NCBI GenBank assembly: GCA_017676145.1
Contig: GCA_017676145.1_3628.1
Direction: 5' to 3' (one strand)
DNA length: 64,000 nucleotides
Source of the DNA: a phage
Part shown: positions 8,555 through 63,816 of the stretch, one piece after another
Layout: each line of letters opens with the position of its first letter
Position numbering within the stretch: the first letter of the stretch is position 1
Translations under genes and position numbers: made by a program
The notes under the pieces: model-generated
What the model was told of the DNA's origin: nothing
What the model saw: only the letters and a program-made list of their open reading frames with translations
Databases searched by the model: none

Positions 8555-8591
8555 TAGTGTATTTTGTTTTCAACAAGAGGGGGGGTCATCT

Positions 8592-8831
8592 ATGTATAAG
8601 TCGTTTTCAATTTACTCAAGACAGGCAAAACACTACACAGAGATTCTGATCACTCAGAAAAAATCTGTAGAAGGTGAGTGGGAATATCATCATAAAATGT
8701 TGCGTCCAGATTGGGTTTTTGATAGACTTATTGCTATGATTCCCCTTGGAGAAGTATACCCTCTGACAGGTCATAGGGATGCTTGGGATTTAATTGATTA
8801 CATAGATTCATTTAAGGAGCCCAGTGTATGA
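8592..8831 (+). CDS. hypothetical protein (79 aa)
   Basis: Track ORF with G-rich SD upstream; stop overlaps next start. Confidence 0.5.
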   Translation: MYKSFSIYSRQAKHYTEILITQKKSVEGEWEYHHKMLRPDWVFDRLIAMIPLGEVYPLTGHRDAWDLIDYIDSFKEPSV

Positions 8832-9226
8832 AGATTGAGATCACTAAAGAAGGTAAGAAAGTGTCTGGCGATTATGCAACAGTAATTCGGGATGTAATGT
8901 TCGAAGTCACTAAGATTGGCACATCCAAGGTTGGTCAAACGGTGAGTGTGCAAGGTAATATCGCCTCAGGAGAGAAGATAATCATCGTGATCAAAGGACA
9001 AGACCCTGTGGAAGGAACAGTGGGCCGAGGAGGCTACCTGTGCATTTCTGAAGAACCGCGCATGCTGGTTGCTGATGACTCCACAGGTAAAAAGCGGGTA
9101 TGTAACACTGACGAGGTGATGATTATCTATCCAGTCAACCCGGATGATCCGGCAACATGGATTGTGGGAAATGAAATCTTCTCTTTAGAAGAGTTATCCT
9201 TCCCAGCTCCGCGCTTTGTTCAGTAA
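8828..9226 (+). CDS. hypothetical protein (132 aa)
   Basis: Track ORF; aaggag SD 8 nt upstream of ATG. Confidence 0.55.
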   Translation: MKIEITKEGKKVSGDYATVIRDVMFEVTKIGTSKVGQTVSVQGNIASGEKIIIVIKGQDPVEGTVGRGGYLCISEEPRMLVADDSTGKKRVCNTDEVMIIYPVNPDDPATWIVGNEIFSLEELSFPAPRFVQ

Positions 9227-9265
9227 TAATTTATCTTACCAGGGACGGTAGGAGTAGGAGGTAGC

Positions 9266-9499
9266 ATGAAAGTTAAATTTCTTACAGATTTAGGGTACCC
9301 TTCCTTGGTTGACTGCGTTGGTAAAATTGTGGAAGCAAAACGGCTATCTGCAAACGATAATGTTGTCATGGTTAAGGGAAAAGATTTACTGGCTGCAGGT
9401 GCAGAGTCTGGCAGGATCTCTCCTGACTATACGTATTACCTGTCTTTAAGTAATCTACCAGAACGAGGCGGCAAAGGCCTTGAAGTTGTGGAGGAGTGA
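9266..9499 (+). CDS. small protein, member of MKVK...KGxDLxAAGA...EVVEE paralogous family
   Basis: MKVKFL N-terminus, VKGKDLLAAGA core, C-terminal LEVVEE; ggaggt SD. Confidence 0.55.
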   Translation: MKVKFLTDLGYPSLVDCVGKIVEAKRLSANDNVVMVKGKDLLAAGAESGRISPDYTYYLSLSNLPERGGKGLEVVEE

Positions 9500-9503
9500 C
9501 AGT

Positions 9504-10022
9504 ATGCTATTAGTTGATTGGAAAGATTTTTATGGAGATAAAGACCCGAAAGCCTTTATATATAAGCCATGGAGATACTCAGAGAGTCAAATTGCTGCAA
9601 TAAACCTTACAGCAAAGCGCCGAAAAATTATCGAAAGTAAATATAGATACGCTCAGCTAGTAGCTGGTGTTTCTCCACAGGTAGAGAGTTTTGTGCTCAA
9701 ACTGTACGAAAAGTTTATGAGTTACGATCTGTCATTCGTGAAGGTTGGTGATGATTTATCTCCTGGTAACAACGTAACCCGTTGGAAAGTTTCATGTGAC
9801 AAAAAACTCCCGGTCAGTATTGAGGTGTGCCGATACTGGGGGTATCATGATTGTGGATTGTACGACTATCATGATGTGGAAATAAAGCCACGCAATCATC
9901 TAAGCGACCCAGAAAAAGATTACTTGAAGCATGTGATTCTTTCCATGTTTGGAGGGTACATCACAGAGAAAAATAGCGAAGACAGGGTATCCTTTCTTAA
10001 CAGTTTGAACCAGGAGATGTAG
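9504..10022 (+). CDS. hypothetical protein (172 aa)
   Basis: ATG at M9 of track ORF 9480..10022, preceded by gaggag SD. Confidence 0.5.
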   Translation: MLLVDWKDFYGDKDPKAFIYKPWRYSESQIAAINLTAKRRKIIESKYRYAQLVAGVSPQVESFVLKLYEKFMSYDLSFVKVGDDLSPGNNVTRWKVSCDKKLPVSIEVCRYWGYHDCGLYDYHDVEIKPRNHLSDPEKDYLKHVILSMFGGYITEKNSEDRVSFLNSLNQEM

Positions 10023-10023
10023 T

Positions 10024-10260
10024 ATGACTATAGACACTGTGCTGGTTTGGTATTGCGCATTGACCTTTCTGACAATGGTTGTTTTAGCAACTCTTTGCAT
10101 CATATCTTGTAGAAAAATTAAGTTTGACGACTTCATAACTATAATCACTGCCGCACCTTTTTGGCCTGTTGTTCTCTTCATTGTGGTTATGTGCTTGGTA
10201 GATCACTGTAAAACCGTCAGGAAAATGAAGGAGGCAGATAAGAATGGTAACAGTGCCTGA
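10024..10260 (+). CDS. small membrane protein (78 aa, two predicted TM helices)
   Basis: Hydrophobic stretches LVWYCALTFLTMVVLATLCII and ITAAPFWPVVLFIVVMCLV. Confidence 0.5.
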   Translation: MTIDTVLVWYCALTFLTMVVLATLCIISCRKIKFDDFITIITAAPFWPVVLFIVVMCLVDHCKTVRKMKEADKNGNSA

Positions 10261-10374
10261 AACTGTTTATGCTGTTCTTAGGGAGATTGCATTCTATACA
10301 GACCTTAGTTTAGCATCTTCATGGGAAAAGAGTATGTATTTAAAATGGTGCGTGAAATTAGAGGGGGCCTTCTA

Positions 10375-10494
10375 ATGTTTCAAGCCATGTTTATTGAAAT
10401 GCTCTCTGGAGTATTACTGCTAGTAGCCATTTTGGGTGGCGCGGCACTGATGTATAATTATCTTGAAAAAGGGGACAGTAATGACAAAAAATAA
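10375..10494 (+). CDS. micro-ORF encoding hydrophobic peptide (39 aa)
   Basis: ATG 6 nt after gaggggg SD; MFQAMFIEMLSGVLLLVAILGGAALMYNYLEKGDSNDKK; overlaps next start by 14 nt. Not on track. Confidence 0.35.
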   Translation: MFQAMFIEMLSGVLLLVAILGGAALMYNYLEKGDSNDKK

Positions 10495-10666
10495 ATCCTT
10501 AGAACAGGCTGAAAACCTTCTCCACGAGCTGGTAAAGGAGTGGAAAGTCGAATACTCAGATTTTAATGCAAGAGAGGGGGAAGATTATTGGCCTACGGAG
10601 CGCTCAGAGGGAGAGTGGTATCAAGATTTCATAGAATGGTTATATCAGACGTGCGATGAGGGGTGA
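10481..10666 (+). CDS. hypothetical acidic protein (61 aa)
   Basis: ATG at M7 of track ORF 10463..10666 preceded by aaggggac SD. Confidence 0.45.
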   Translation: MTKNKSLEQAENLLHELVKEWKVEYSDFNAREGEDYWPTERSEGEWYQDFIEWLYQTCDEG

Positions 10667-10668
10667 CG

Positions 10669-11124
10669 ATGTTTGTTAAATATGTAAAAACGTGCCTCAA
10701 CAACCTTGGTAGAGAGCATTGGTACACCCTGCTTGAAAAAGGAGAAATTTTAACAAAATCTGGAAAGATAACTTTGATACCCTTGGATGATAAAGACCCG
10801 TCACTACTTGTCATAGATGATTACGTTACAGGTGTGTCGTACGAAGTCTCTGTGGAGAGGTTAATACGCAGATCTGGAGGGCCTTATGACCGAAGAGAGT
10901 ATGTTTTCGATTCTGTTACAGAGAAGGAGGATCCGTCTCTAATGTTTAGGATGGTAATCAGAGATATGAAATCATCTATACATAGGATCGTAAAGGACAT
11001 TAAAGAGCCTTTTAGGGTAAAAGTTAAGAAGTTTTTTGATTCTAAGATCAACATACTCGCCGTTGTGCTGGGCGTAATTCAACTTCTGTTAATTTTGCAC
11101 TATCTTGAACTGTTGTTCAAGTAG
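10669..11124 (+). CDS. hypothetical protein with C-terminal TM segment (151 aa)
   Basis: ATG at M3 of track ORF 10663..11124; C-terminal ILAVVLGVIQLLLILHYL. Confidence 0.5.
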   Translation: MFVKYVKTCLNNLGREHWYTLLEKGEILTKSGKITLIPLDDKDPSLLVIDDYVTGVSYEVSVERLIRRSGGPYDRREYVFDSVTEKEDPSLMFRMVIRDMKSSIHRIVKDIKEPFRVKVKKFFDSKINILAVVLGVIQLLLILHYLELLFK

Positions 11125-11184
11125 TGTACAACAAGGCACAAAGGATGTGCCATGATCAAATAAACTAAGAAAGAGGTAGAGAGA

Positions 11185-11532
11185 ATGCCAAAGATTAAGT
11201 CGATACTAATGTGGGCAGCTGTTGTGGCTTTTGTAGGATACTGGACTTGGGAAACTGAATTAAAAGATATCGGATATACCAGTCTTGAGAGCAAGGCATG
11301 CATTGGCATAACCGATGCATTCAGGCAAAATGCTATGGATCACGAATGTGTCGATGCAGATATAGATGAGAAACTGTCTAAGGACAAGGATTTTTACCAT
11401 GGTCATGCCTTGCTTGATAGTGGTGACACTGTAGAATTCTGGTCGTGGTTCCGTGAAGATGGAACAATAAAGACAGCAGTAAAGATTTCCAACAAAGAGT
11501 TAATGCTGTTGCAGCAGAAGGAGGTGCAATGA
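11185..11532 (+). CDS. hypothetical protein with N-terminal TM/signal-anchor (115 aa)
   Basis: agaggtagagag SD; N-terminal ILMWAAVVAFVGYWTW. Confidence 0.5.
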   Translation: MPKIKSILMWAAVVAFVGYWTWETELKDIGYTSLESKACIGITDAFRQNAMDHECVDADIDEKLSKDKDFYHGHALLDSGDTVEFWSWFREDGTIKTAVKISNKELMLLQQKEVQ

Positions 11533-11816
11533 TTTGGATATCCTACACTGATGGCACCATGCTGTATACTGCAGGTACTAGGTATGAAGTTCAGGAGGAC
11601 GATAAAAAATTTATCGTAAAAACATTTGACAAGGACGACAACCTTTTGTTAGAATTGACTTACAAGGTTGGGGAGGTATCTAGCATCCAATTGGATTGCG
11701 GTCATAAAGATAACCCGCTCAAGAAACCTGGGGTAGGTAAAGCTTCAGAAGAACGCCTGTCTCGTATTGCAGAAAGTGTTTCTGCACAAAAATCTAAGAA
11801 GGGGACTAGAAAATGA
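11529..11816 (+). CDS. hypothetical protein (95 aa)
   Basis: Track ORF, start overlaps upstream stop (ATGA). Confidence 0.5.
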   Translation: MIWISYTDGTMLYTAGTRYEVQEDDKKFIVKTFDKDDNLLLELTYKVGEVSSIQLDCGHKDNPLKKPGVGKASEERLSRIAESVSAQKSKKGTRK

Positions 11817-12007
11817 AAAACTTACGTTTTAACACTTATTACTACAACACTTTGAATGATTTGTATTATATTGTTCGAAGTAAAAGTCCTGAAACAGTCC
11901 TATTCTGCCGCGAACCTTTCAAAGGGGAGGAAGTAGAGTCTGAGATGAATGTTAGCCATATTACCTCTTTGTTGCTCTCAGGTGCAATGGAAGAAGCAAT
12001 ATTCTAA
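11813..12007 (+). CDS. hypothetical protein (64 aa)
   Basis: Track ORF, start overlaps upstream stop. Confidence 0.45.
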   Translation: MKNLRFNTYYYNTLNDLYYIVRSKSPETVLFCREPFKGEEVESEMNVSHITSLLLSGAMEEAIF

Positions 12008-12025
12008 ACCAGTCGGGAGGGTTCT

Positions 12026-12211
12026 ATGAAGCACTATTGCCTGTCTGGTAGGATGGGTGCAGATTGTGATTGGATTTTCTTAAAACTTGTCAGCATCCGA
12101 GAGTCAATCCCAGAGGAAGAGCAAGAAAGCGAGCTGATGTCATGGATCAACTATTACGGCAACACTTTCCGGTATGTCAAAATGGAAGAGCTGCCAAACG
12201 AGGATGATTGA
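12026..12211 (+). CDS. hypothetical protein (61 aa)
   Basis: Track ORF with gggaggg SD. Confidence 0.45.
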   Translation: MKHYCLSGRMGADCDWIFLKLVSIRESIPEEEQESELMSWINYYGNTFRYVKMEELPNEDD

Positions 12212-12213
12212 TT

Positions 12214-12303
12214 ATGGTCGCATCAATATTAACGTTTATGGGTGGCGTGGCATTCGGATTCATTATTTGTCTGTTTATAGTTATTATGGCTATGCGAGGC
12301 TGA
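12214..12303 (+). CDS. micro-ORF encoding TM peptide (29 aa)
   Basis: MVASILTFMGGVAFGFIICLFIVIMAMRG between two track ORFs; weak SD. Not on track. Confidence 0.3.
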   Translation: MVASILTFMGGVAFGFIICLFIVIMAMRG

Positions 12304-12306
12304 ATT

Positions 12307-12591
12307 ATGAAACTGTTTGAGTGGTTTAAAAAGTTTAAATACCGAGCCGTTGCTGTATCGAAATGGACCGTCCGCTGGGTGGACGATGATGGAACACAAA
12401 TTCCAGGTGATCAGGATACAGGATACTGGGTTATGATGGAGAACGGATTTGGGAAAAGGAAGTTTAAATGTGTTGGTGCTCCTACTCTTTTAAATGTTAG
12501 AAGTGTGCCAGGGTACAGCACTATGGTTGTTTGGGAGCTATCCGGTGTTCCTCCTGCCAATGTGCAATATCTGCCAAACCCAGAAAAATAA
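12307..12591 (+). CDS. hypothetical protein (94 aa)
   Basis: Track ORF. Confidence 0.5.
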   Translation: MKLFEWFKKFKYRAVAVSKWTVRWVDDDGTQIPGDQDTGYWVMMENGFGKRKFKCVGAPTLLNVRSVPGYSTMVVWELSGVPPANVQYLPNPEK

Positions 12592-12603
12592 AAGGAGAAG
12601 ATA

Positions 12604-12888
12604 ATGAGCAATGGTGTCAGTAACAGTGCTGCAGAGTTTAAAGTGATCTGTAAAGGAACTTATTGGATAGTGAAACAGAAGGTGTACCTATTCGGTTTCA
12701 TACCGTTTTGGCAGAGATTTTGCTGGGGAGCTAACGAGCTTAAGAGATACGCTACCAAGTCTATGGCACTTATTGGTATAGCTGAATACATTGCTGCCAG
12801 AGACAGAGAGGGGAAAACTTGTTACTACACTGCTGACGAGATTCGTAACAGTGTTTACGTTCCACAACCGCCCGATGGAGACCGCTGA
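12604..12888 (+). CDS. hypothetical protein (94 aa)
   Basis: Track ORF with aaaaggagaag SD. Confidence 0.5.
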   Translation: MSNGVSNSAAEFKVICKGTYWIVKQKVYLFGFIPFWQRFCWGANELKRYATKSMALIGIAEYIAARDREGKTCYYTADEIRNSVYVPQPPDGDR

Positions 12889-13112
12889 TGAAAGTTAAAG
12901 TTTTAGATTCAAACTTCTATATTGGTCAAGAGCCTTTAGTTGGAAAAGTGTTTACCGCTATCCCTAACGAAGATTATCCTGACCTTTTAAAAATAAAAGG
13001 GGAAGATCTTATTGCCGCTGGCGCGTCTCAGGAATGCTTTGACAGTCAGTGGACCTACAACTTTGCCCTAGGGGAGGATGTGGAGGTAGTGGAGGACGAT
13101 TATGAAGGTTAA
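12888..13112 (+). CDS. small protein, MKVK...EVVEE family member (first gene of duplicated triplet A)
   Basis: MKVKVLDSNFYIGQ..IKGEDLIAAGA...VEVVEDDYEG; ATGA overlap with upstream gene. Confidence 0.55.
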   Translation: MKVKVLDSNFYIGQEPLVGKVFTAIPNEDYPDLLKIKGEDLIAAGASQECFDSQWTYNFALGEDVEVVEDDYEG

Positions 13113-13356
13113 AATTCTTGACTCTAACGTCTACTTGGGACAATCATTCCTGAAGGGAAAGGTCGTACCTGCTGTATACTTCGAAGGGTTGCCGTGGGAT
13201 GATCCTGTGCGGCAAAATCACAGCCATGTAGGCCACAATGTGGTGTTCATTTTGGGATCAGACCTGATCGCGGCTGGTGCCCCGGAATATTATTTCGGAG
13301 ATGACTCGTATTATGCCTTTGGGGTAGGGTCAGATGCAGATATTTTAGAGCCGTGA
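13102..13356 (+). CDS. small protein, MKVK family member (triplet A, gene 2)
   Basis: MKVKILDSNVYLGQ...LGSDLIAAGA; paralogous to 12888 and 9266 ORFs. Confidence 0.55.
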   Translation: MKVKILDSNVYLGQSFLKGKVVPAVYFEGLPWDDPVRQNHSHVGHNVVFILGSDLIAAGAPEYYFGDDSYYAFGVGSDADILEP

Positions 13357-13767
13357 TTGGGGACTGTTGTGAAAAATAAACTGTTCAAAGTTACAATGAA
13401 AATTCGCGGAGCTTGGAGCGTAAAGCAAGGGCGTATCCCGGAATTTGAGAAAGACTTCTACGTAGTCTCTACCTCTGAAGAGGCTGCATGCTGGCAGGCT
13501 GGCTATGCCTACGCAAGAACTTGGTACGAAGGGTACCAGACTGGGGGCTATGACGGAGAAATTGTCAGTAAGGGTGTGGAAGAAATTAATGTGTTGACAA
13601 GTGAAAAAGTTTTTGTTATAGTACATCCTGATTCCAGAGTGAAGCATTACTGGAATGCCAGAACAAAAACCTGGACACCGTTTGCAGATTCTGCTACACC
13701 ACTTTTAAACCAGAAAGCTCTTGACTCTGCCCCGAGCTACGGGGTTGTTGAAGAAAAGATAAGCTGA
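13357..13767 (+). CDS. hypothetical protein (about 130 aa), paralog of 15571..15966 (triplet A, gene 3)
   Basis: Shares HP..S.V.HYW...T.TWTP block with 15571 ORF; exact start uncertain (TTG 13357 / GTG 13369 / ATG 13396). Confidence 0.45.
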   Translation: MGTVVKNKLFKVTMKIRGAWSVKQGRIPEFEKDFYVVSTSEEAACWQAGYAYARTWYEGYQTGGYDGEIVSKGVEEINVLTSEKVFVIVHPDSRVKHYWNARTKTWTPFADSATPLLNQKALDSAPSYGVVEEKIS

Positions 13768-13784
13768 AATAGTGGGGTACTTAC

Positions 13785-14075
13785 ATGATGGATTTAGTTT
13801 TGGATACTGATAACACCGAATCGTTTAAAAAAGATGGTGTAATAAGCATGGACCAATCCTGCCATGCCAAGATTGACTCAAAATGGACCTACAAGTTTGA
13901 CGGTGAGATCTTCGCAAATGATGAGAAGGTCGTGGATGCTGTAGCCATTTTAAAAGCTTTAGGGTATGACCCTGTGAACTCATTGATCAAGGATCCTGTT
14001 GAGTTTGCAGAGTATGTTCGTAAAATGGCAGATCTTGCAGTGGATATTTTAAAAACTATCGACGACAAGCTGTAA
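13785..14075 (+). CDS. hypothetical protein (96 aa)
   Basis: Track ORF with ggggta SD. Confidence 0.5.
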   Translation: MMDLVLDTDNTESFKKDGVISMDQSCHAKIDSKWTYKFDGEIFANDEKVVDAVAILKALGYDPVNSLIKDPVEFAEYVRKMADLAVDILKTIDDKL

Positions 14076-14081
14076 AAACTG

Positions 14082-14110
14082 TTGACACAACATTTGATCT
14101 TTAGTATCAT
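14082..14110 (+). promoter_or_regulatory. sigma70-like promoter (TTGACA-17-TATCAT) upstream of hpf-like gene, followed by 5' UTR hairpin
   Basis: ttgacacaacatttgatctttagtatcat, then gaggg-tttggtt-ccctc hairpin (about 14121-14137), aaggag SD, ATG 14158. Confidence 0.5.
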
Positions 14111-14157
14111 TATTTTCAAAGAGGGTTTGGTTCCCTCTTCTTTAAAAGGAGCACGTT

Positions 14158-14475
14158 ATGCAGATTGAAATCACTGGCAACGTAGAGATCACTGAAGGTA
14201 TGGTGTCTTTCATTTCCCACAAAATGTCCAAACTGGAGCGTTTGCACCCATCTGCCAACTATGCACGTGTGAGTGTAAAAGTTGAAAATGATCACCAGGA
14301 AGTTATGGCTTTTATTTTTGACAATTCTGGGAAAGAAGTTATCGCCAAAGCTAAAGGTAGCGATGCTTACGAGGCAACTGACCGTATGGTGGATGTTGCA
14401 GCACGCCAGTTGGCTAAATGCGGTGGAAAGAAAGGTAAGGGAAAAGGTAAAGTAAAGATTGACTTTTGGGATTGA
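14158..14475 (+). CDS. hpf: ribosome hibernation promoting factor / RaiA (S30AE family) homolog
   Basis: N-terminus MQIEITGNVEITEG and ...AARQLAK closely parallel E. coli HPF (MQLNITGNNVEITEA...LARQLTK); 105 aa with Lys/Gly-rich tail. Confidence 0.75.
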   Translation: MQIEITGNVEITEGMVSFISHKMSKLERLHPSANYARVSVKVENDHQEVMAFIFDNSGKEVIAKAKGSDAYEATDRMVDVAARQLAKCGGKKGKGKGKVKIDFWD

Positions 14476-14484
14476 GGTGCTACA

Positions 14485-14586
14485 ATGGGTATGATTAAGA
14501 AATTAGTCCCAAATGTAGAGATTGCATGCTTTGAAATTATGTTTGCAATCGCAGTTGTAGTTAATGTGTTAGGTTACGGCTATTAA
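14485..14586 (+). CDS. micro-ORF encoding hydrophobic peptide (33 aa)
   Basis: ATG 5 nt after gaggtg SD; MGMIKKLVPNVEIACFEIMFAIAVVVNVLGYGY. Not on track. Confidence 0.3.
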   Translation: MGMIKKLVPNVEIACFEIMFAIAVVVNVLGYGY

Positions 14587-14612
14587 TATCAAATAATTGA
14601 GGAGACCTCTAA

Positions 14613-14882
14613 ATGAAAATTAAATTATTCAAAACTGAGCTGGCAGACAAAAACTGCGGACTGGTTGAAGGCATGATCGTTGAAGCACAACCAGTGGACT
14701 ACATGAAGGTGGTTCGTGATGCTCTGGGTGAAGGTTTTGATCTGATGGAGCCAGCTCTGCGAGAAGATGTCATCGAGATGGCTAAAAAGCACACACCGGA
14801 AGGTTTGGTAGTGTTTGTTGCTCCAGGTAACGGAGAAGAGTTGATTGTAACTCCGGATGTGTATGAGGTTGTAGAGGAGTAA
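14613..14882 (+). CDS. small protein with C-terminal YEVVEE (family-related)
   Basis: MKIKLF start, ends VYEVVEE; gaggagacc SD. Confidence 0.55.
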   Translation: MKIKLFKTELADKNCGLVEGMIVEAQPVDYMKVVRDALGEGFDLMEPALREDVIEMAKKHTPEGLVVFVAPGNGEELIVTPDVYEVVEE

Positions 14883-14970
14883 TCTTGGGTTAGCCATACT
14901 TCCTCGACAAGAAAGGTTTGTAATTATTTGCGGGAAAGGAATCCCCATCTCTTACCAGAGGTGATACTGT

Positions 14971-15234
14971 ATGATTGTTTATTTTAAAACTTCAGGTGGA
15001 TACCCTGATTCTCAAAGCTTGATTGGAAAAACGTGCACAGCATACTCGCCTCTTGATGATGAGGTAAGTGATACCCTACGAAATATGTATCGGATTGATC
15101 CACAAGAAGCTTTTGATCAGAACCTTGTATTTGTCAAGGGCTCAGACATGAAGTCTTTGGGGGCATTTCCTGAAGCAGATGATAATGCTGTTTATTCGTT
15201 TATGACCCCTTTTGAAGCTATGGTTGTTGGGTGA
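14971..15234 (+). CDS. small protein, MKVK family-related (triplet B, gene 1)
   Basis: ...VKGSDMKSLGA... core; gaggtga SD. Confidence 0.5.
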   Translation: MIVYFKTSGGYPDSQSLIGKTCTAYSPLDDEVSDTLRNMYRIDPQEAFDQNLVFVKGSDMKSLGAFPEADDNAVYSFMTPFEAMVVG

Positions 15235-15238
15235 GAAT

Positions 15239-15571
15239 ATGAAAGTACGCTTTATTGGTGAAACAATTCCTGTGCATCTCCGGTCGCCTGAGGATTCTGC
15301 AGATCTTGCATCTCAAAAGGCCAGAGGGTATGATAAGAAAGTAATCTCAACCGATGTAGAGCTTGAGGCTACCAGTCTGCCTGACCCTGCTGCATTCTTT
15401 AATCATTATGGATACTATTTCAGCAATCTGATGAATATCGGTGAGCTTGTGTTTATTAGTGGTGGAGAAATAGTTAGCAAGCTTGGCGGCGATCCGGATG
15501 TCTTTCATGAAACCTGCCCTTTTGCATTTGTGGTAGGTTCAGATGTGGAAGTTATTGAGGAGGTGCGGTAA
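15239..15571 (+). CDS. small protein, MKVK family member (triplet B, gene 2)
   Basis: ATG at M10 of track ORF 15212..15571 (MKVRFIGE); C-terminal VEVIEEVR. Confidence 0.5.
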   Translation: MKVRFIGETIPVHLRSPEDSADLASQKARGYDKKVISTDVELEATSLPDPAAFFNHYGYYFSNLMNIGELVFISGGEIVSKLGGDPDVFHETCPFAFVVGSDVEVIEEVR

Positions 15572-15966
15572 TGGTAAGTCTATACCGTGTTGAGTATAGC
15601 TCAGATACTGTATACAACGTAAGAAGCAAAGATCGTAGCGACAGAGTGCAAGAAATGTATGTTCTTGCCGACAGTCCGTTATCTGCAGCGTTTAAGGCAG
15701 GAGCTCTTGCATCTCGTTGGAAATTCGAGGGTGGATCTTTCTATGAAGAAACTCTTGAAGATTCTGTTGTTATTTCTTCTGTAGAGGTTTCAACTGACTA
15801 CGAAGGGAAAAAGTTCGTAATGCGGCACCCACACAGCAACATTGCGTACTACTGGGATGTTCTGAACAACGAGTGGACTCCAGATCTTCAGAAGGCCACT
15901 GTTCTGACTCCGTTCTTGGCAGATAAGTTCCCACCAGAAGGTAATTTATCTGCACTGTTTCAGTAA
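15571..15966 (+). CDS. hypothetical protein (131 aa), paralog of 13357..13767 (triplet B, gene 3)
   Basis: Shares RHPHSNIAYYW...NEWTP block with 13357 ORF. Confidence 0.5.
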   Translation: MVSLYRVEYSSDTVYNVRSKDRSDRVQEMYVLADSPLSAAFKAGALASRWKFEGGSFYEETLEDSVVISSVEVSTDYEGKKFVMRHPHSNIAYYWDVLNNEWTPDLQKATVLTPFLADKFPPEGNLSALFQ

Positions 15967-15984
15967 TTTTATTCTACACAGGTG

Positions 15985-16013
15985 TTGACAACACCAACCC
16001 TGTGTGCAATAAT
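15985..16013 (+). promoter_or_regulatory. sigma70-like promoter (TTGACA-17-AATAAT) flanked by inverted repeat
   Basis: cacaggtgttgacaacaccaaccctgtgtgcaataat; cacagg/cctgtg inverted repeat brackets the -35 region (possible operator). Confidence 0.45.
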
Positions 16014-16045
16014 ACCTTCATCTTAACAAGACAGGAGACTGATTG

Positions 16046-16303
16046 ATGAAGATTAAATTGAAAAACCTTGAAATGGCAGAGGTTCAGGAAGGTGTTGATT
16101 TCCGCTCTAAAGATGGCGACATCTTAGAGGCGAATATCCCGACCTATAAGTTGATTAAAGGTTTTGGCAACGTTCCTGAAGAGGATATTACAGACATTCT
16201 TATGATGTTGATCCTTGACGGGACCGTGTTTGTAGGTGAAGGTGAGAACGCTATTGCAATCCCAGGCCATTTTTATGAAGTAGTTGACGAAGAGGTGCTG
16301 TAA
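16046..16303 (+). CDS. small acidic protein with C-terminal YEVVDEEVL (family-related)
   Basis: ATG at M2 of track ORF; acaggag SD. Confidence 0.5.
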   Translation: MKIKLKNLEMAEVQEGVDFRSKDGDILEANIPTYKLIKGFGNVPEEDITDILMMLILDGTVFVGEGENAIAIPGHFYEVVDEEVL

Positions 16304-16654
16304 ATGAAAGTAGAGATCACAGGTTTTGATATGAATGTGGTTCCGGAAGATATTTTAGCTAAACTTCCGGAAGGTTTTGGTAACGGTGTTGTGGTGGATG
16401 CTGTCCCTCCTACCAAAGACATTCTGCTGCAGTATGGTGTAGCAGAGGAAGATGTCGATAAAGTTCTTACAATGATGGCAATAGACCGTGTTGTCGTTGT
16501 TAAAGGTCTTGAAGGTTTTGATGACGATCCTCTGATTATTCGTGGTGATGACTATCGCATCATCGACAACGAAGGCCAAGAGTTCTACGAACCTTCTGCT
16601 GAAGATGTTCTTAACTTACTACTGGAAGCAGGCACCGAAGAGGAGGAAGAATAA
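16304..16654 (+). CDS. hypothetical acidic protein (116 aa)
   Basis: Track ORF, ATG directly after upstream stop. Confidence 0.5.
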   Translation: MKVEITGFDMNVVPEDILAKLPEGFGNGVVVDAVPPTKDILLQYGVAEEDVDKVLTMMAIDRVVVVKGLEGFDDDPLIIRGDDYRIIDNEGQEFYEPSAEDVLNLLLEAGTEEEEE

Positions 16655-16983
16655 TGAAAATTGATCCGTTACTAAAGGCTCGTGCAGAAAAAGCATACAC
16701 TATCAAGCTGACCTCTCTGGTCCCTACTTGTCATCCGGATGTAGGTTGGCCTGAAGGCCTGGTAGAGGGGACTGTAACAGCTGCATACCTTCCTAACATC
16801 AAATACCTCATGGAGATCTTGGAGATGGATGAGGAAACGGCAGAACAGTTCCAGTTAGACATGAAGCAAAGTGGGACTCTGGTTATTCACGGGTGGTATA
16901 ATACTAAAGATGCAGAAGATCCCCTGGTAACTTCTAATCTGGCATATGAAATCTTAGGACCTTTGAACTTGGGGGAAGACTAA
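16654..16983 (+). CDS. hypothetical protein (109 aa)
   Basis: Track ORF, start overlaps upstream stop. Confidence 0.5.
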   Translation: MKIDPLLKARAEKAYTIKLTSLVPTCHPDVGWPEGLVEGTVTAAYLPNIKYLMEILEMDEETAEQFQLDMKQSGTLVIHGWYNTKDAEDPLVTSNLAYEILGPLNLGED

Positions 16984-17270
16984 TGAAAGGTTTGGTTAAG
17001 ATCAAGATTAAAGACACCAAGGGAGAACTCAGCCATTTTGGAATTAACGATGGTGACGAGCTGATCGCCCACCTGCCTACCAAGGAAGTTGTAAGCAAAG
17101 CTGTTGCCGGAGAAGAAGATGCAATGCAGGCTGCAGGTGTGGATGAAAACTATGTAGCAATGTGTATGTGCCGAGATCAGGTTGTTCTGTATAAAGCGTA
17201 TCGACCAAATGGAGCACCTGAGTGGCTTGTTTTCCGACCCGAAGGGTATGAAATTTTAGAGACGCTATGA
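16983..17270 (+). CDS. hypothetical protein (95 aa)
   Basis: Track ORF, start overlaps upstream stop. Confidence 0.5.
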   Translation: MKGLVKIKIKDTKGELSHFGINDGDELIAHLPTKEVVSKAVAGEEDAMQAAGVDENYVAMCMCRDQVVLYKAYRPNGAPEWLVFRPEGYEILETL

Positions 17271-39754: not shown

Positions 39755-40145
39755 TTGCTGCTTCTCCTGCATTCATCAGATCTGCCATAGCGTCACCCAC
39801 GAAGAGGACAACCACGTCGTTGACAGCGTCAGCATCATCTTTATTAATGTTGCTGAATTTGGGGCACACTGCAATGACCATATATACCCCGTTGCCCAAC
39901 TGAACAGTGCGTGTAGTGCACATCAGTGTGGTGTTTGTGCCTTCTTTAAAGGCAAATCCTTGCAGACGTTCTTCCAGAGAGTCGCCTGTTGATTTCAACA
40001 AGGCAAGATCGCCCAATGAGTAGGTAGTGTCCTCATAGGTCAGTCCAGAGGTCAGTGTTGCCTTTCCATCAGAAACTATAATAACCCCATCGGCACCGTC
40101 AAGCTCAGAGGCTTCAAAGATATTGATATCCCAAATGTTTTTCAT
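39744..40145 (-). CDS. hypothetical acidic protein (133 aa)
   Basis: ATG at M2 of track ORF; overlaps upstream stop. Confidence 0.5.
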   Translation of the reverse strand: MKNIWDINIFEASELDGADGVIIVSDGKATLTSGLTYEDTTYSLGDLALLKSTGDSLEERLQGFAFKEGTNTTLMCTTRTVQLGNGVYMVIAVCPKFSNINKDDADAVNDVVVLFVGDAMADLMNAGEAANED

Positions 40146-40417
40146 CACTCTGCCTCATCATCTAAGTAATCATCAAGAGAGGTGAAGATTTCACCGAAGT
40201 ATTCTAAGATCTCTAGCTCGCGTGTGGTGCAGCAAACATAATCTCCCTGGTCGTCCTTGATAGTAGCCTCTTTACCCAGAACATCTACTTCAAATTCATC
40301 GTTCAACAGGACGGCCCCTGTGTAAACTTTGTCAGCTGTGCAGTCCCGAAAAGCAGAGTCCTTTTCCAGATAGTCTGGCTTAACCTTGGCTTTAATTCGT
40401 TGATATTGTTTGGTCAT
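40145..40417 (-). CDS. small Cys-containing protein (90 aa), paralog of 40481..40735
   Basis: ATG at M21 of track ORF 40145..40477 (aaagggga SD) downstream of promoter 40449..40477; shares KP.Y...AF.DCT...Y...DDQGD.V.CTT pattern with neighbour. Confidence 0.5.
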   Translation of the reverse strand: MTKQYQRIKAKVKPDYLEKDSAFRDCTADKVYTGAVLLNDEFEVDVLGKEATIKDDQGDYVCCTTRELEILEYFGEIFTSLDDYLDDEAE

Positions 40418-40448
40418 TGCTGTGGTCCCCTTTCGTTTTGATAGGGCC

Positions 40449-40477
40449 ATTATATTAGGCCCCATCACTGTTGTCAA
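40449..40477 (-). promoter_or_regulatory. sigma70-like promoter (TTGACA-17-TATAAT)
   Basis: - strand ttgacaacagtgatggggcctaatataat. Confidence 0.55.
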
Positions 40478-40480
40478 GTA

Positions 40481-40735
40481 TTAATGTTCAGGTTTTACAA
40501 AAACTACTTCATTAACAGTGCACCAGACAGAGTCTCCTTCATCATCTTTAAAGGTAAGGCACTGGGCTGAGTTTTCCAGCTCATCAATCTCTTCTTGTGA
40601 TAAAGGGGCCCCTTCTTCCAGAAGGGCTTTTACCAGAGGGTTCTCACAAAACTCTGCTTCATAAATTGCACCGACTGTGCAATCCTTAAAAGCCCGGTCA
40701 TTTGCAACACATTCTGGCTTCAAAGTAATTTTCAT
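40481..40735 (-). CDS. small Cys-containing protein (84 aa), paralog of 40145..40417
   Basis: Track ORF; aaggaga SD. Confidence 0.5.
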   Translation of the reverse strand: MKITLKPECVANDRAFKDCTVGAIYEAEFCENPLVKALLEEGAPLSQEEIDELENSAQCLTFKDDEGDSVWCTVNEVVFVKPEH

Positions 40736-55761: not shown

Positions 55762-56946
55762 TCAAGCTTTAGCTAAAATGGCGCTAAACTCTTCACCAAA
55801 CTCTTTTACAATCTTCATCAGGTTTGGGTATGCTTTGATCAGCTGAGCAACGATCTTGTCCCGGCCTTTACCAATAAGTAAGGCATTTCCTAGGGCGTTG
55901 GGTTTCATCATCGCCATAAAGACTGAGAATACAAAGTCTCGGTTCTCATCCTTGAAATTTTCCCAAAGGAAATCAAGGAAGTTTGCCACGCAGCTAACAA
56001 GATCTTCGTCTGAGACACTTGCATTTTCCATCATATTCCGAATAGCAATACAACCTTCAGACCCAAGAATCCACAAAATATCTGGCTGCTTAGGACCTAC
56101 ATACTCTTTGCAACCCCCTGCCATAATCCGACCGATTTCTGGCAAGTTTCGTTTCTTGGTGTGGTAGGTCCAGATTTCTACCGCTGCAGTGTGACCAATA
56201 GCACCTTGCAGAAGAACACGAGCCATAGCGTCAGAAATAATACCGCTGTCAAAATCGTGCAGGATGTCAGATGCAGCAACCCAAGATCGCGGTGTAGCAA
56301 AAGATGGACAATTAATCTCAGCCATAGCCTCATAATTATCGATAGCTGATGGAACTCTTTTCAGATATCCAATTACAGAGGAATGCACACCATTAAGGAA
56401 TGCGTAGTCCTCAATAAATACCTCTGCACTGCTTGTAACTTCTACAATGATAAAGCGGTTAGCCAGAGGGGCTTCGAGCGCTGAAAGAACAGCACCATCC
56501 GTAGCACGGTTACCTGCAGCTACAAAAACAGAGCCCTTAGGAAATGCATAGGTGCCGCACTTGTGGTCGAGCATAATTTGCATTGCAACCTTCTGCAGGT
56601 AGTTATCTGCATGAGTAAGCTCATCCAGAAAGATAATTCCGCTCCAGTCCGAGTCTGCAGGCCAAAATTCTGGAATTGCAAACACTGTGCGTGTAGTTCC
56701 ATCTGCCTCTACAGGGATAGGTAGTCCAGACAAGTCAGCAGGATCTTTATCTGACAGCCGCACGTCAACCAGGTTGTCATCTCGCTCACCGAACATATTA
56801 TCAGCAATCTGCTTCATCACCTGGCTCTTCCCCACACCCATCGGTCCTAAAATCAGGACAGATCGGTTATGACGCTGGGCAAATTGAATAATAGCTGGCA
56901 ACTCGCGGACAGTGATTTGACCACTTTCGAATACGTTTCTTGACAT
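55762..56946 (-). CDS. MoxR-like AAA+ ATPase
   Basis: Walker A ILGPMGVGKS, Walker B IIFLDELTHA, sensor-1-like VAAGNR; 394 aa. Confidence 0.75.
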   Translation of the reverse strand: MSRNVFESGQITVRELPAIIQFAQRHNRSVLILGPMGVGKSQVMKQIADNMFGERDDNLVDVRLSDKDPADLSGLPIPVEADGTTRTVFAIPEFWPADSDWSGIIFLDELTHADNYLQKVAMQIMLDHKCGTYAFPKGSVFVAAGNRATDGAVLSALEAPLANRFIIVEVTSSAEVFIEDYAFLNGVHSSVIGYLKRVPSAIDNYEAMAEINCPSFATPRSWVAASDILHDFDSGIISDAMARVLLQGAIGHTAAVEIWTYHTKKRNLPEIGRIMAGGCKEYVGPKQPDILWILGSEGCIAIRNMMENASVSDEDLVSCVANFLDFLWENFKDENRDFVFSVFMAMMKPNALGNALLIGKGRDKIVAQLIKAYPNLMKIVKEFGEEFSAILAKA

Positions 56947-59525: not shown

Positions 59526-59554
59526 TTGACATATTCCCAGGCACTTGATAAGAT
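59526..59554 (+). promoter_or_regulatory. sigma70-like promoter (TTGACA-17-TAAGAT), rightward arm of divergent pair
   Basis: ttgacatattcccaggcacttgataagat. Confidence 0.5.
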
Positions 59555-60587: not shown

Positions 60588-62069
60588 ATGGCCCCTTCTG
60601 GAGTTTTAATGGATAGCAGAAGTTCAGAAATCATTGCCGCACAAAAAGATGACGCCTTGCGAATGCTGCAGGCAGCACGCATGTATCTTCTTGAAAAGCT
60701 GCCGTTTTATGGCACACTGTTGTCAGGGTTGCAGTTCGTAGAAAACCACACATGGTGCTCCACTATGGCAACAGACCATAAACGCATTTATTACAGCCCT
60801 GAGTTCATTATGGGGTTGGCGGATGAGCGCAAAACCATTCTTAAAGCATCTTTGACTGACAAGCAGTTTGAGATGGCTGAGGTTTTCTATTCCCCAAAAT
60901 CTGTGAAAGAGGTGGCATTTCTTCTATCGCATGAGGTGGGGCATATTATCTGTGATCATCTGGTCCGTGGCAAAAGTTTTGAGCCGGAGCTGTTCAATAT
61001 TGCCTGTGATCATGTTATCAACACAGGTCTTGTGGTTGACTTTAGCAAGCCTCCTTGTGTTTTCTTCCCGAAGGGGAAAAGCACTACGTTTGTAAAAGGT
61101 AAGCCTTTTGGCTTCTTAGCTAGTTGCTACTGTGACATGAGGTTCCATGGATGGATTGCTGAGAACGTCTATGCGGTTCTTGATAAGCAAAGAGATCAGA
61201 ATAGCGGTAAAAGTAAGAACGGTAAAGGCGAGAGCTCTCAAGGAGATAAACGACAAACCGATGATCACATGAGTGGTAACGGTGGCACTAGCGATGATCT
61301 TGGAAAGGCGATGGGGTATGATCAGCCACAACCAGTGATCAGTCAATCTGATAAAGATCAAGCCATGCAGGACTCTGGTGACATGTTGGAAGCAGCAATG
61401 CAGGCTTCCGGAGGTCGTTGCCCTGAGGCTGTGCGTGAGTTTGTCAAGAACAGAGGTAAGCCTGTAATCAATTATATAGACATCATTAAGCAACGTATGC
61501 TGTCTAAACGAAAGGCTGAACTAACCTATAGAAAACCCGGTCGCCGATCTGGGTCTTTGACCAGCACAATGCGAAAAGTTGGGGCTATAAACAAGAATCA
61601 GCACGTTGTTGTTCCAGGTCGTAATCCGGAAAACACTATAGATATTGTGGTGGCTCTAGACGTTTCTGGATCGATCTCCCAAAGAACTTTAAAGAAAATG
61701 TTCAATGAGATCACTGGGTTGTGCAATCTGTATAAAGAGTTCAAGGTTACGATGTTCTGCTGGTCAACCGAGGTTGGAGAGGTTAAAGTATACACTCGTG
61801 GGAACATCGACGAGATGATCAACTATGAGGTCCACTCAACATGGGGAACAACAGCCGCTTGCGTGTTCGAGTATCTGGACGCTAACATACCAAATGCAAA
61901 AGATGTCATCGTCCTGACCGACCTATACTTTGAGCATAACTTTGAACAAAAGGCTGTTGACAACAAGTGGAAAAAGTACGATACTCTATGGGTCCTCACT
62001 GAAGGGTATAATAAAAATTATATCCCGAGCTTTGGGAAAACTGTGGAATTAATCGAGTACGCTAAGTAA
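60588..62069 (+). CDS. von Willebrand factor A (vWA) domain protein with N-terminal HExxH metallopeptidase-like domain
   Basis: HEVGH zinc-binding-type motif in N-terminal half; MIDAS motif VVALDVSGS in C-terminal half; 493 aa; typical partner architecture of MoxR AAA+ ATPases. Confidence 0.7.
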   Translation: MAPSGVLMDSRSSEIIAAQKDDALRMLQAARMYLLEKLPFYGTLLSGLQFVENHTWCSTMATDHKRIYYSPEFIMGLADERKTILKASLTDKQFEMAEVFYSPKSVKEVAFLLSHEVGHIICDHLVRGKSFEPELFNIACDHVINTGLVVDFSKPPCVFFPKGKSTTFVKGKPFGFLASCYCDMRFHGWIAENVYAVLDKQRDQNSGKSKNGKGESSQGDKRQTDDHMSGNGGTSDDLGKAMGYDQPQPVISQSDKDQAMQDSGDMLEAAMQASGGRCPEAVREFVKNRGKPVINYIDIIKQRMLSKRKAELTYRKPGRRSGSLTSTMRKVGAINKNQHVVVPGRNPENTIDIVVALDVSGSISQRTLKKMFNEITGLCNLYKEFKVTMFCWSTEVGEVKVYTRGNIDEMINYEVHSTWGTTAACVFEYLDANIPNAKDVIVLTDLYFEHNFEQKAVDNKWKKYDTLWVLTEGYNKNYIPSFGKTVELIEYAK

Positions 62070-62084
62070 GAGAGGGGGTTATTT

Positions 62085-62348
62085 ATGGCAACAGAGTTAA
62101 AATTTGCATCAAACCGTAAAACTAAGAAATATCTGTCCTCAGTGGCTCCAGGCACTGTGGTGATGTTTGTTGATGAACTTGGGGATGTGAATACAGCACT
62201 TGTTGTAAAATCACATCCTGCAAACATATATGTTGGGGTATTTGACCTGTTCAGAAAAGTGTTTGTAGAACTACCCCACAGTTTAGTTGTTACAGAAATG
62301 GATGCCTGCATAGAAATTCTTGGCGAAGTTATGGTGGAGGAACAATAA
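62085..62348 (+). CDS. small protein (87 aa), paralog array member 1, C-terminal GEVMVEEQ
   Basis: Same length and K-rich N-terminus/GTVV core as next two ORFs; C-terminal tail resembles EVVEE family of block 1. Confidence 0.55.
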   Translation: MATELKFASNRKTKKYLSSVAPGTVVMFVDELGDVNTALVVKSHPANIYVGVFDLFRKVFVELPHSLVVTEMDACIEILGEVMVEEQ

Positions 62349-62611
62349 TGGCTACTAGCATTGTATTCAATTCTAAGGTGAAGAACAAAAAGCGTGCAGA
62401 CAGCTTTCCGTGTGGGACCGTGGTAAGTTGCGACGGAGACGGCATTCAAAACATAGTTATGATTGTCAAAACAGGAGAACATTGTGTGTGGGGGTTCGAT
62501 TTAGAAAATAATGAGTTGTACGATCTGCCACCAAACATGAAAGTTACAGAGCTTGACACCAAAATTACCATCCTTGGAGAGACAAGCTATTCAAAAGAAG
62601 GAGGAGAATAA
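62348..62611 (+). CDS. small protein (87 aa), paralog array member 2
   Basis: MATSIVFNSKVKNKK...CGTVV; start overlaps upstream stop. Confidence 0.55.
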   Translation: MATSIVFNSKVKNKKRADSFPCGTVVSCDGDGIQNIVMIVKTGEHCVWGFDLENNELYDLPPNMKVTELDTKITILGETSYSKEGGE

Positions 62612-62874
62612 TGACCACAAAAATCACTATCGCAGAACCGAAAGCTAACACTCAACCTATCGAAAAGTTTAAATGCGGGGAGGTGGTAACATTTACACCA
62701 GATAATGAAGATGCTAAGATTTTCGCCATGGTCACAGCTGAGTGGATGTGTGACAATACCACACAGGTTCTGCGTTTTGACACCTATCTTACAGATGAAA
62801 TCAGGAACGATAAGATCGTGACTGGTGTGGATACTGAGATTATTTTCTACAAGAGCTTTTTAGAGGGTTTCTGA
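62611..62874 (+). CDS. small protein (87 aa), paralog array member 3
   Basis: MTTKITIAEPK...CGEVV; start overlaps upstream stop. Confidence 0.55.
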   Translation: MTTKITIAEPKANTQPIEKFKCGEVVTFTPDNEDAKIFAMVTAEWMCDNTTQVLRFDTYLTDEIRNDKIVTGVDTEIIFYKSFLEGF

Positions 62875-62875
62875 T

Positions 62876-63109
62876 ATGGCAAAAATTCGTAAATTATCCA
62901 GCAATCAAGTTGTGAAAGACTTTGAATCTGGAGAGATTCTGTATGTTCGTGATGCAGATGACGAAGGTGAAGATCTTGTTATGCTAGTAGGACACGCTGA
63001 AGACGGATGCATACAGGCTGTTTTTCTTGAAACAGCTATGGTGCACTGGATAGAGCTGGACCTGAAAGCACGAAAACCTAAAGCAGAGATCCTGATTTAC
63101 GAAGATTAA
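62876..63109 (+). CDS. small acidic protein (77 aa), paralog array member 4 (divergent)
   Basis: MAKIRKLSSNQVV...GEILYV; immediately follows member 3. Confidence 0.5.
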   Translation: MAKIRKLSSNQVVKDFESGEILYVRDADDEGEDLVMLVGHAEDGCIQAVFLETAMVHWIELDLKARKPKAEILIYED

Positions 63110-63124
63110 CAAAAGGAGAGAGCC

Positions 63125-63574
63125 GTGTTGAGCAAACGTGAATGCGACAGCATCAGCCTGAATTCTTATAAAAAACAATGGTTTGGGGTAGAAGTTTGCC
63201 GACTGCGGCTAGGCTCCTACCTGAACTTCGTTTATTACGAGAGCGACAGTCGTATAGTTTCTTATGAAGTGTTCTACACTAAGAATACATTCGAACTACG
63301 CCGTAAAGTGGACGGAGGGAGAACTACCACCCAGAATAATTGGGAAACTATTCTGCCCCCGGATGTTATAGGTAGTCCCCTGAATGTATCTGAAGATGAA
63401 AATCTTATGGTTCATGCTATGATGGGACTTGACAGCTTAGAGCTGGCGATCTATGATATGTCCATCGAAGCAGTTAAGCTGGACTACATCGAAAACACTT
63501 TAGAGGAAGGTATCAAGAAGTTTCTCGGTGAGAAATTGAAAGCCCACTTTCATAAGGAGCTATATCTGTTATGA
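63125..63574 (+). CDS. hypothetical protein (149 aa)
   Basis: Track ORF (GTG start) after aaaaggagag SD. Confidence 0.5.
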   Translation: MLSKRECDSISLNSYKKQWFGVEVCRLRLGSYLNFVYYESDSRIVSYEVFYTKNTFELRRKVDGGRTTTQNNWETILPPDVIGSPLNVSEDENLMVHAMMGLDSLELAIYDMSIEAVKLDYIENTLEEGIKKFLGEKLKAHFHKELYLL

Positions 63575-63816
63575 AGACCCGTAAAGAACGTAACAAGATT
63601 TTACCTGGCGCTCTCGAACACATGATGAAGTGCAGATCTATCTGGCACTCTGCCAAGGAGGGGCAGCATGTGGTCGTGGTTAGTGATAATGCCAACCCAT
63701 TCGGTGATTATGTCACCATGATGACTCCATACATCCGCGACGGTGTTGTGGAAGTGGTTCCTTATAGCGGTCTGCATGAGAGGCATTTTGAGAGCACTTT
63801 GCTAGTGGAGCTATAA
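63571..63816 (+). CDS. hypothetical protein (81 aa)
   Basis: Track ORF; start overlaps upstream stop. Confidence 0.5.
   Translation: MKTRKERNKILPGALEHMMKCRSIWHSAKEGQHVVVVSDNANPFGDYVTMMTPYIRDGVVEVVPYSGLHERHFESTLLVEL

Follow-up and report, generated by a model that had tools for sequence, protein, structure and literature searches.

Tandem families of small genes are a familiar feature of large lytic phages: packed runs of paralogs encoding proteins of 70–120 amino acids (aa) lie in non-structural, non-essential regions, and their acidic C-terminal tails overlap the ribosome-binding site of the next gene. Here we describe an array of four such genes, m1 to m4, in a 64,000-nucleotide (nt) stretch of phage DNA (GenBank assembly GCA_017676145.1, contig GCA_017676145.1_3628.1; 'the window' refers to this whole stretch). 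The array is a lineage-specific example of small phage accessory gene families and by itself reveals no new mechanism; compared with other tandem families, including those in a second block of small genes in the same window (block 1), it is much narrower in distribution and has a defined insertion point beside a vWA gene. Its products match three PHROGs of 'unknown function' over their full length (phrog_10698, phrog_12861 and phrog_12046; E 1e-41 to 1e-62), and the same proteins occur elsewhere as the rV5-like hypothetical proteins rV5 ORF14–16, Bas49 0051–0054 and Bas54 0052–0054. The database keeps the three families apart; sequence profiles join them here into one highly diverged family with a predicted fold and a history of birth and expansion. 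The array also shares its neighbourhood with a MoxR/vWA pair (phage MoxR, 55762–56946; DUF2201, 60588–62069) and sits in the transcription unit of the vWA partner. Most phages that encode MoxR and vWA lack the array, and the array was not co-required in the one condition tested.

The window phage is a Vequintavirus, an rV5-like Escherichia coli myophage: region 60588–63816 shares 94–95% DNA identity with over 100 rV5-like Escherichia phages of this genus. The annotation of Bas49/EmilHeitz lists four consecutive 'hypothetical proteins' between a 'putative metallopeptidase' and more hypothetical genes. The four small open reading frames (ORFs) reported in a preliminary description of the locus are present on the plus strand with the coordinates and lengths given there (87, 87, 87 and 77 aa), and they do directly follow the vWA/HExxH gene, m1 beginning 15 nt past its stop codon. 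The array and its two anchors are arranged as follows.

60588–62069, + strand: upstream anchor, not a family member; DUF2201_N metallopeptidase (HEVGH motif) plus DUF2201 vWA-like protein, the usual partner of a MoxR ATPase
62085–62348, + strand: m1, 87 aa, variable-slot paralog of type 'A1'; pI 5.0, N-terminal 20 aa basic; ATG start
62348–62611, + strand: m2, 87 aa, second variable-slot paralog, type 'A2'; ATG start
62611–62874, + strand: m3, 87 aa, conserved distant paralog; ATG start
62876–63109, + strand: m4, 77 aa, conserved and most diverged paralog; net charge −8; ATG start
63125–63574, + strand: downstream anchor d5, a conserved 149-aa gene (phrog_6790), which directly follows the vWA gene in genera without the array

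The relationship between m1 and m2 is evident from pairwise comparison (39% identity over 82 aa, BLASTP E 7e-10; z = 17.9 against shuffles), and both belong to phrog_10698 over their full length (E 7.6e-43 and 4.8e-41, respectively). The two remaining genes fall into phrog_12861 (m3) and phrog_12046 (m4); for these, pairwise BLASTP and Smith–Waterman comparisons are insufficient, and profile tests were therefore applied. When shallow profiles were ranked against a background of about 1000 ORFs (929–1032), the top pick of the m1/m2 profile was m3, that of the m4 profile was likewise m3, and the m3 profile picked m2 ahead of m4. A more diverse profile of slot 1, the position held by m1 and m2 in the window, drew on the L008 lineage, rV5 ORF14 and the metagenomic variants P0044 and P0047. 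With no m3 or m4 sequence in it, this profile gave m3 a score of 23.2 bits (E 2.7e-6) and m4 one of 14.7 bits (E 1.2e-3), placing them first and second among 927 other ORFs; the m3 match is colinear over residues 1–77, and the family alignments are full-length. Addition of m3 raised m4 to 23.1 bits (E 2.8e-6), and the reverse profile, made of m3 and m4, retrieved m2 (E 1e-4) and m1. None of 3000 composition-preserving shuffles of m3, and none of 3000 of m4, reached the observed score (99.9th percentile, 8–10 bits), and a control ORF from downstream of the array, d6, scored −0.4 bits. Scores beyond all shuffles, together with full-length colinear alignments, argue that m1 to m4 are one highly diverged homologous family and that their similarity is homology, not composition. 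The claim that the four tandem genes are paralogous is thereby borne out by the profiles, and predicted structure agrees with it: the similarity does not reduce to composition, and the folds are not unrelated.

Models of m2 and m4 were built with AlphaFold2 (AF2) from non-overlapping alignments. The m2 model, based on slot-1 types and m3, is all-beta and consists of an N-terminal strand plus five strands (predicted local distance difference test (pLDDT) score 79, predicted template modelling score 0.65); the m4 model, based only on its own near-identical orthologs (pLDDT 63), has the five strands in the same order. Both independent alignments thus yield the same predicted fold, a five-stranded, strongly bent antiparallel barrel of ~50–60 residues, and the fold class of m2 and m4 is predicted to be that of SH3/Tudor-like small beta-barrels. 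The extra N-terminal strand of the m2 model (residues 2–9) lies outside the barrel core. Among viral models the closest are those of m1 and the rV5-type orthologs, followed by many uncharacterised phage proteins of 70–90 aa. The likeness to SH3-like, Tudor and KOW barrels (the Tudor domains of SMN and TDRD3, the C-terminal domain of uL2 and the C-terminal Tudor-like RNA polymerase-binding domain of UvrD/PcrA) is one of fold class only: sequence identity is 5–18% (4–17% in the comparison with Tudor domains), no profile-level match to the PDB or Pfam exists, and the array proteins are stand-alone, acidic and equipped with the extra strand. Sequence-level searches of Pfam, NCBIfam, PADLOC (whose models describe defence, not anti-defence) and the PDB returned no significant match for m1 to m4.

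The distribution of the family was determined with two word-indexed protein searches and an exhaustive HMMER scan that covered 1.84 billion representatives. Members were found solely in Vequintavirus-like phages; the exhaustive search gave 8 hits, 2 of them spurious. The long repeat proteins P0045 and P0046 were rejected as members, their matches being spurious and spread over multiple stretches. The vWA gene, which is conserved throughout the Vequintavirinae and in many phages besides (Pfam E 6e-28 for DUF2201_N and 4e-11 for DUF2201), served as the anchor for comparing the locus across genera. Seunavirus, Mydovirus, Henunavirus and Certrevirus have 0 copies of the array, and an ortholog of d5 directly follows their vWA gene (for Seunavirus, L002:5406–5789, BLASTP E 1e-10). 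L014, a 124-kb metagenomic relative, has exactly 1 family member in the syntenic slot; its neighbouring genes are 65% (anti-sigma), 61% (vWA), 48% (d5, L014:5268–5702) and 46% (d6) identical to those of the window. Among 118 Vequintavirus records, 74, including rV5 and Bas54/MaxBurger, have a three-gene form, in which a single slot-1 gene precedes m3 and m4; the other 44 share the four-gene form of the window, and m2 is present only in these. The single slot-1 gene is a third type, about 40% identical to m1 and to m2; pairwise identity among the three types is about 35–40%. Copy-number variation, which the preliminary description had suggested looking for by comparative genomics, is therefore established: 0, 1, 3 and 4 copies occur at one insertion point, the very series that in-situ tandem duplication predicts. 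These comparisons make the array an insertion specific to the genus, lying between the vWA/DUF2201 gene and d5 and probably expanded by tandem duplication in situ, and the locus shows, in a form open to experiment, how accessory gene families can grow in place within large lytic phages. A family member can also exist away from the vWA gene, since the short contig of the P0044 variant places it between two unrelated genes (phrog_420 and phrog_12958), with no adjacent vWA gene. A chimeric origin of the single rV5-type gene, through unequal crossover between m1 and m2, was considered; segment-wise identities show no consistent switch. Sixteen records that carry the name 'Campylobacter phage' (with C. 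jejuni as host) match E. coli vequintaviruses at above 90% identity across 60588–63816; they are probably mislabelled or contaminant assemblies.

The array appears to evolve in two regimes. Relative to rV5, DNA homology of 92–93% is lost exactly over 62100–62600, that is over m1 and m2, and a single divergent gene stands in their place. This break marks a cassette swap, in which slot 1 (m1 and m2, or one gene of the third type) is exchanged as a unit between otherwise ~94%-identical phages. The m3 protein, by contrast with this slot, is 97–100% identical across lineages. Compared with the L008 lineage (~73% nt identity), protein identity is 81% for the vWA protein, 56% for m1, 62% for m2, 97% for m3, 95% for m4 and 60% for d5. 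Nei–Gojobori estimates for the same comparison give a non-synonymous divergence (dN) of 0.02 for m3 and m4 versus 0.13–0.32 for all neighbours, and omega is about 0.03 for both genes; relative to rV5 they show zero non-synonymous change (pN 0) despite pS values of 0.34 and 0.24. These figures indicate strong purifying selection on m3 and m4, and a constrained, conserved pair next to a swappable slot is thus found within one locus. Both comparisons place a breakpoint at the m2/m3 junction: homology to rV5 resumes at ~62600, and a block of high identity to L008 (88–93% nt) starts at ~62607, so that the junction appears to be a recurrent recombination point. The L008 block runs to ~63230, covering m3 and m4 and reaching ~100 nt into d5; its edges are sharp, its surroundings are 45–80% identical, and its synonymous divergence (dS) is lower than that of the flanks. 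A nucleotide-level element under m3 and m4 was also considered: the region has no Rfam match and no repeats, and the m3–m4 messenger RNA (62611–63109) folds with z −2.4 (0 of 100 dinucleotide shuffles were as stable). An RNA element was rejected as an explanation of the block, given the lack of Rfam matches and repeats, a folding z of only −2.4 and edges that fit a recombination tract.

The genes of the array are tightly packed. The preliminary description held that every start overlaps the preceding stop; m1/m2 and m2/m3 indeed overlap by 1 base (TAATG), but m3 and m4 are separated by a 1-nt spacer (TGAtATG). Every gene is preceded, at a spacing of 6–9 nt, by a good to strong Shine–Dalgarno sequence (SD).

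62072–62078, + strand: SD of m1, GAGGGGG
62336–62341, + strand: SD of m2, GGAGGA, within the codons for the '...VEEQ' tail of m1, read directly
62598–62606, + strand: SD of m3, AAGGAGGAG, within the codons for the '...KEGGE' tail of m2
62862–62867, + strand: SD of m4, AGAGGG, within the codons for the '...LEGF' tail of m3

Because the purine-rich SD of the next gene sits in the last codons of the preceding one, the acidic, glycine-containing C-terminal tails of m1, m2 and m3 are largely a by-product of that ribosome-binding site. The 1-nt overlaps make translational coupling plausible; the strong SD that each gene has of its own and the missing overlap at m3/m4 weaken the case. A lysine-rich N-terminus had been ascribed to all four proteins, and it is present in m1 and m2 (first 20 residues basic, +3.5) but not in m3 and m4 (approximately neutral, +0.5). 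The motif that follows this segment reads PGTVV in m1, CGTVV in m2, CGEVV in m3 and SGEIL in m4. All four proteins are acidic, with a whole-protein pI of 4.5–5.0.

The transcription unit of the array begins with a gene for an Srd-like anti-sigma factor and is divergent from the unit that contains the MoxR ATPase gene. Its candidate promoter is the following.

59526–59554, + strand: candidate sigma-70-type promoter, TTGACA-17-TAAGAT, with an extended −10 element

No promoter or terminator signals above chance were found inside the array. In rV5, genes 11–26 have been treated as a single sigma-70-driven unit (PMC3606486). The array unit is probably expressed early. Three observations on the neighbourhood may be added. 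The genes for the MoxR-type AAA+ ATPase (55762–56946, − strand) and its DUF2201 partner (60588–62069, + strand) lie in divergent transcription units. In L014, a TnpB/Cas12f-like gene (1119–2258; OrfB_IS605, Cas12f1-like_TNB) sits upstream of the anti-sigma gene, in the divergent promoter region. The rV5 GenBank record (L011, DQ832317) splits the vWA/metallopeptidase gene at 524–1985 into ORF12 and ORF13, which is probably due to a frameshift or a sequencing error.

Phage therapy and O157 biocontrol make use of vequintaviruses, a group for which genome-wide transposon tools have become available. In published transposon data (HIDEN-SEQ) for Bas54, which its coordinates identify as MaxBurger, the slot-1 gene (bas54_0054), m3 (bas54_0053) and m4 (bas54_0052) are classed as 'Non-essential' on E. 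coli K-12, whereas on CFE311, a clinical isolate, the phage needs its MoxR ATPase (bas54_0063) to overcome a predicted defence system, DS-28 (bioRxiv 10.1101/2025.11.20.689424). The conditional data cover one defended host, CFE311, and single insertions. The same source gives these log2 fold changes (log2FC) on CFE311.

MoxR: log2FC −7.23, q 0
vWA protein: log2FC −2.20, q 0.009
d5: log2FC −2.28, q 0.195
m4: log2FC −1.32, q 0.68
m3: log2FC +0.33, not significant
slot-1 gene: log2FC +0.46, not significant

In Extended Data Table 8 of that preprint, the sheets 'Data S6' (K-12 vs CFE303) and 'Data S7' (K-12 vs CFE311) are identical and hold the same CFE311 TRANSIT run, so that there is only one defended host with data.

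Taken as a whole, the locus is best explained, with a probability that we put slightly above even, as a family of accessory barrel proteins that expanded in place, split into two regimes and may bind host or defence proteins. In this scheme, an ancestral gene of ~85 codons would have been inserted between the vWA/DUF2201 gene and d5 in the ancestor of the genus Vequintavirus, and tandem duplication in place of this single gene would have produced the four copies. All four products would be single-domain, acidic SH3/Tudor-like barrels with an extra N-terminal strand, made from a sigma-70-driven, probably early, unit headed by the Srd-like anti-sigma gene; the tight packing, with 1-nt overlaps and SDs inside the preceding gene, would ensure roughly coordinated synthesis. 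The family would then have split into a swappable slot 1 and an almost invariant m3/m4 pair. The proteins may act as accessory binders that dock onto host or host-defence proteins independently of the MoxR–vWA pair, with m3 and m4 hitting conserved targets and the swappable slot tracking strain-variable ones. As a role, binding of host or defence proteins is the most likely of those considered, though still less likely than not. For an anti-defence role the context is indirect: the accessory region, the neighbouring anti-defence MoxR and the variability of the cassette.

It is important to point out that several observations weigh against this explanation or would favour a rival to it. Taken alone, the hidden Markov model of phrog_10698 leaves m3 and m4 outside the family: m3 matches it with E 0.08, though full-length and colinear, and m4 has no match. 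BLASTP links neither m3 nor m4 to any other array member, and Smith–Waterman z-scores for pairs with m3 or m4 are 1.2–4.4, the control ORF d6 scoring 3.4 against m4. The model of m4 is of moderate confidence only. Against L008, dN of m1 and m2 (~0.3) is no faster than that of the anti-sigma and d5 genes; since it equals that of the neighbours, slot-1 variability may be ordinary mosaicism rather than an arms race, and the idea of slot 1 as a hypervariable arms-race gene was dropped in favour of cassette replacement alone. Because the high-identity block reaches into d5 and has a lowered dS, part of the conservation of m3 and m4 probably reflects a more recent recombination tract and not constraint alone. 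No array gene is significantly depleted on CFE311. Finally, the case for a binder or anti-host role is drawn entirely from the size, charge and fold class of the proteins and from the neighbourhood and evolutionary pattern of their genes. The observations on pairwise similarity would suit a history in which only m1 and m2 are true paralogs and the likeness of m3 and m4 is compositional or convergent, as in small, acidic, beta-rich proteins. The missing BLASTP links, the three separate PHROGs, pairwise z-scores of merely 3–4.4 in the presence of a control at 3.4, and the low probabilities given by hhalign with very shallow profiles of 2–4 sequences (effective number of sequences about 1–2) all fit such a history. 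It is nevertheless very improbable: no shuffle reproduced the scores, the slot-1-only profile ranked m3 and m4 at the top, the reverse profile found m2 and m1 and the control failed, the alignments run colinearly over the full length, the two independent models share a fold, and L014 shows a single-copy, ancestor-like state of this very locus.

Other readings accept the family and differ in what its products do. The array proteins could be accessory subunits, adaptors or substrates of the MoxR/vWA-metallopeptidase machine, with the variable slot giving target specificity; proximity in one transcription unit (15 nt from the vWA gene to m1), the conditional requirement for MoxR and vWA on CFE311 and the mild, non-significant depletion of d5 and m4 would agree with this. 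MoxR and vWA occur without the array, however, in four other Vequintavirinae genera and hundreds of other phages, slot-1 and m3 insertions are neutral on CFE311, and P0044 is not beside a vWA gene. Neither co-occurrence with MoxR and vWA across genomes nor a shared CFE311 phenotype was found, so a functional tie to the vWA protein, for which the preliminary description had proposed co-expression and pull-down, is not upheld; the data argue against an obligate partnership. Redundancy among paralogs could mask the phenotypes of single insertions, and the idea is thus weakened to the rank of unlikely. A related proposal, that the array is a modular counter-defence specificity set in which m3, m4 and the slot-1 barrels each recognise a different target of host immunity or takeover and possibly pass it to the MoxR–vWA-metallopeptidase to be remodelled or cleaved, has a slim chance at best. 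If it were true, exchange of the slot-1 cassette would re-aim the phage at strain-specific defences, and the array would serve an AAA+/vWA machine as a duplicative 'adaptor library' encoded by the phage, of which none has been described before. Formation of a hetero-oligomer, as an Sm/Hfq-like ring or a multimer strand-swapped through the N-terminal strand, would make the complex the functional unit and the gene packing a means of setting stoichiometry. The 1-nt start/stop overlaps and the strand outside the m2 barrel core are compatible with it, but viable phages have 1, 3 or 4 copies, their products are acidic whereas Sm/Hfq proteins that bind RNA are not, the N-terminal helix typical of the Sm fold is missing from the m2 model, and Tudor/SH3 structural matches score equally well or better; we regard the complex as distinctly unlikely. 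That the genes encode minor virion (tail) components is scarcely credible. The downstream 149-aa gene does belong to phrog_6790 ('tail protein'), yet the array is part of a non-structural unit at a great distance from the genes for morphogenesis, bas54_0042–0064 all tolerate insertions whereas structural genes do not, and the rV5 supplementary tables, searched by accession and 'gp' names, have no entry for an array product, which is a weak negative. Independent accessory binders, expanded in place, remain the preferred reading. The findings set the array family apart both from the vWA/MoxR anti-defence pair and from the families of block 1, to which it had seemed connected.

Block 1, at ~7.7–17.3 kilobases (kb; 7740–17270, + strand), contains at least two multi-copy small-gene families, F1 and F2.

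9266–9499, 12888–13112, 13102–13356, 14971–15234 and, weakly, 15212–15571, + strand: members of F1
7740–8273, 14613–14882, 16043–16303, 16304–16654 and 16983–17270, + strand: members of F2

Many members of both families start with MK(I/V)K and end with (Y/L)EVVEE, the genes ending in EVVEE lying at about 9–17 kb, and F1 and F2 match each other over their 26 N-terminal columns only (hhalign E 0.003). The preliminary description had taken the EVMVEE tail of m1 as a sign of kinship with block 1. The resemblance is literal and does not extend to homology: jackhmmer searches from four block-1 seeds never recruited m1 to m4, and hhalign of the array family gave probabilities of 0.4% (F1) and 0.2% (F2). 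The likeness of the tails is superficial and is explained by the embedded SD of the next gene.

A number of minor observations concern annotation and other small genes. Two PHROG labels in the neighbourhood are likely to have been mis-transferred: the DUF2201 vWA/metallopeptidase (60588–62069) is filed in phrog_1314 as an 'HNH endonuclease', and the non-essential 149-aa early-unit gene (63125–63574) in phrog_6790 as a 'tail protein'; both labels have spread into several GenBank and RefSeq annotations. The control d6, an 81-aa ORF (63571–63816, + strand), shows a beta-rich 'G.HVVVV...DGVVEVV' pattern that is suggestive of another small barrel; it is unrelated to the array family (−0.4 bits) and shows no more than a weak match to block-1 family F2 (E 0.09). 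Other paralog pairs in the window are 13357–13767 and 15571–15966 (+ strand; BLASTP E 9e-7) and 40145–40477 and 40481–40735 (− strand; BLASTP E 1.6e-7).

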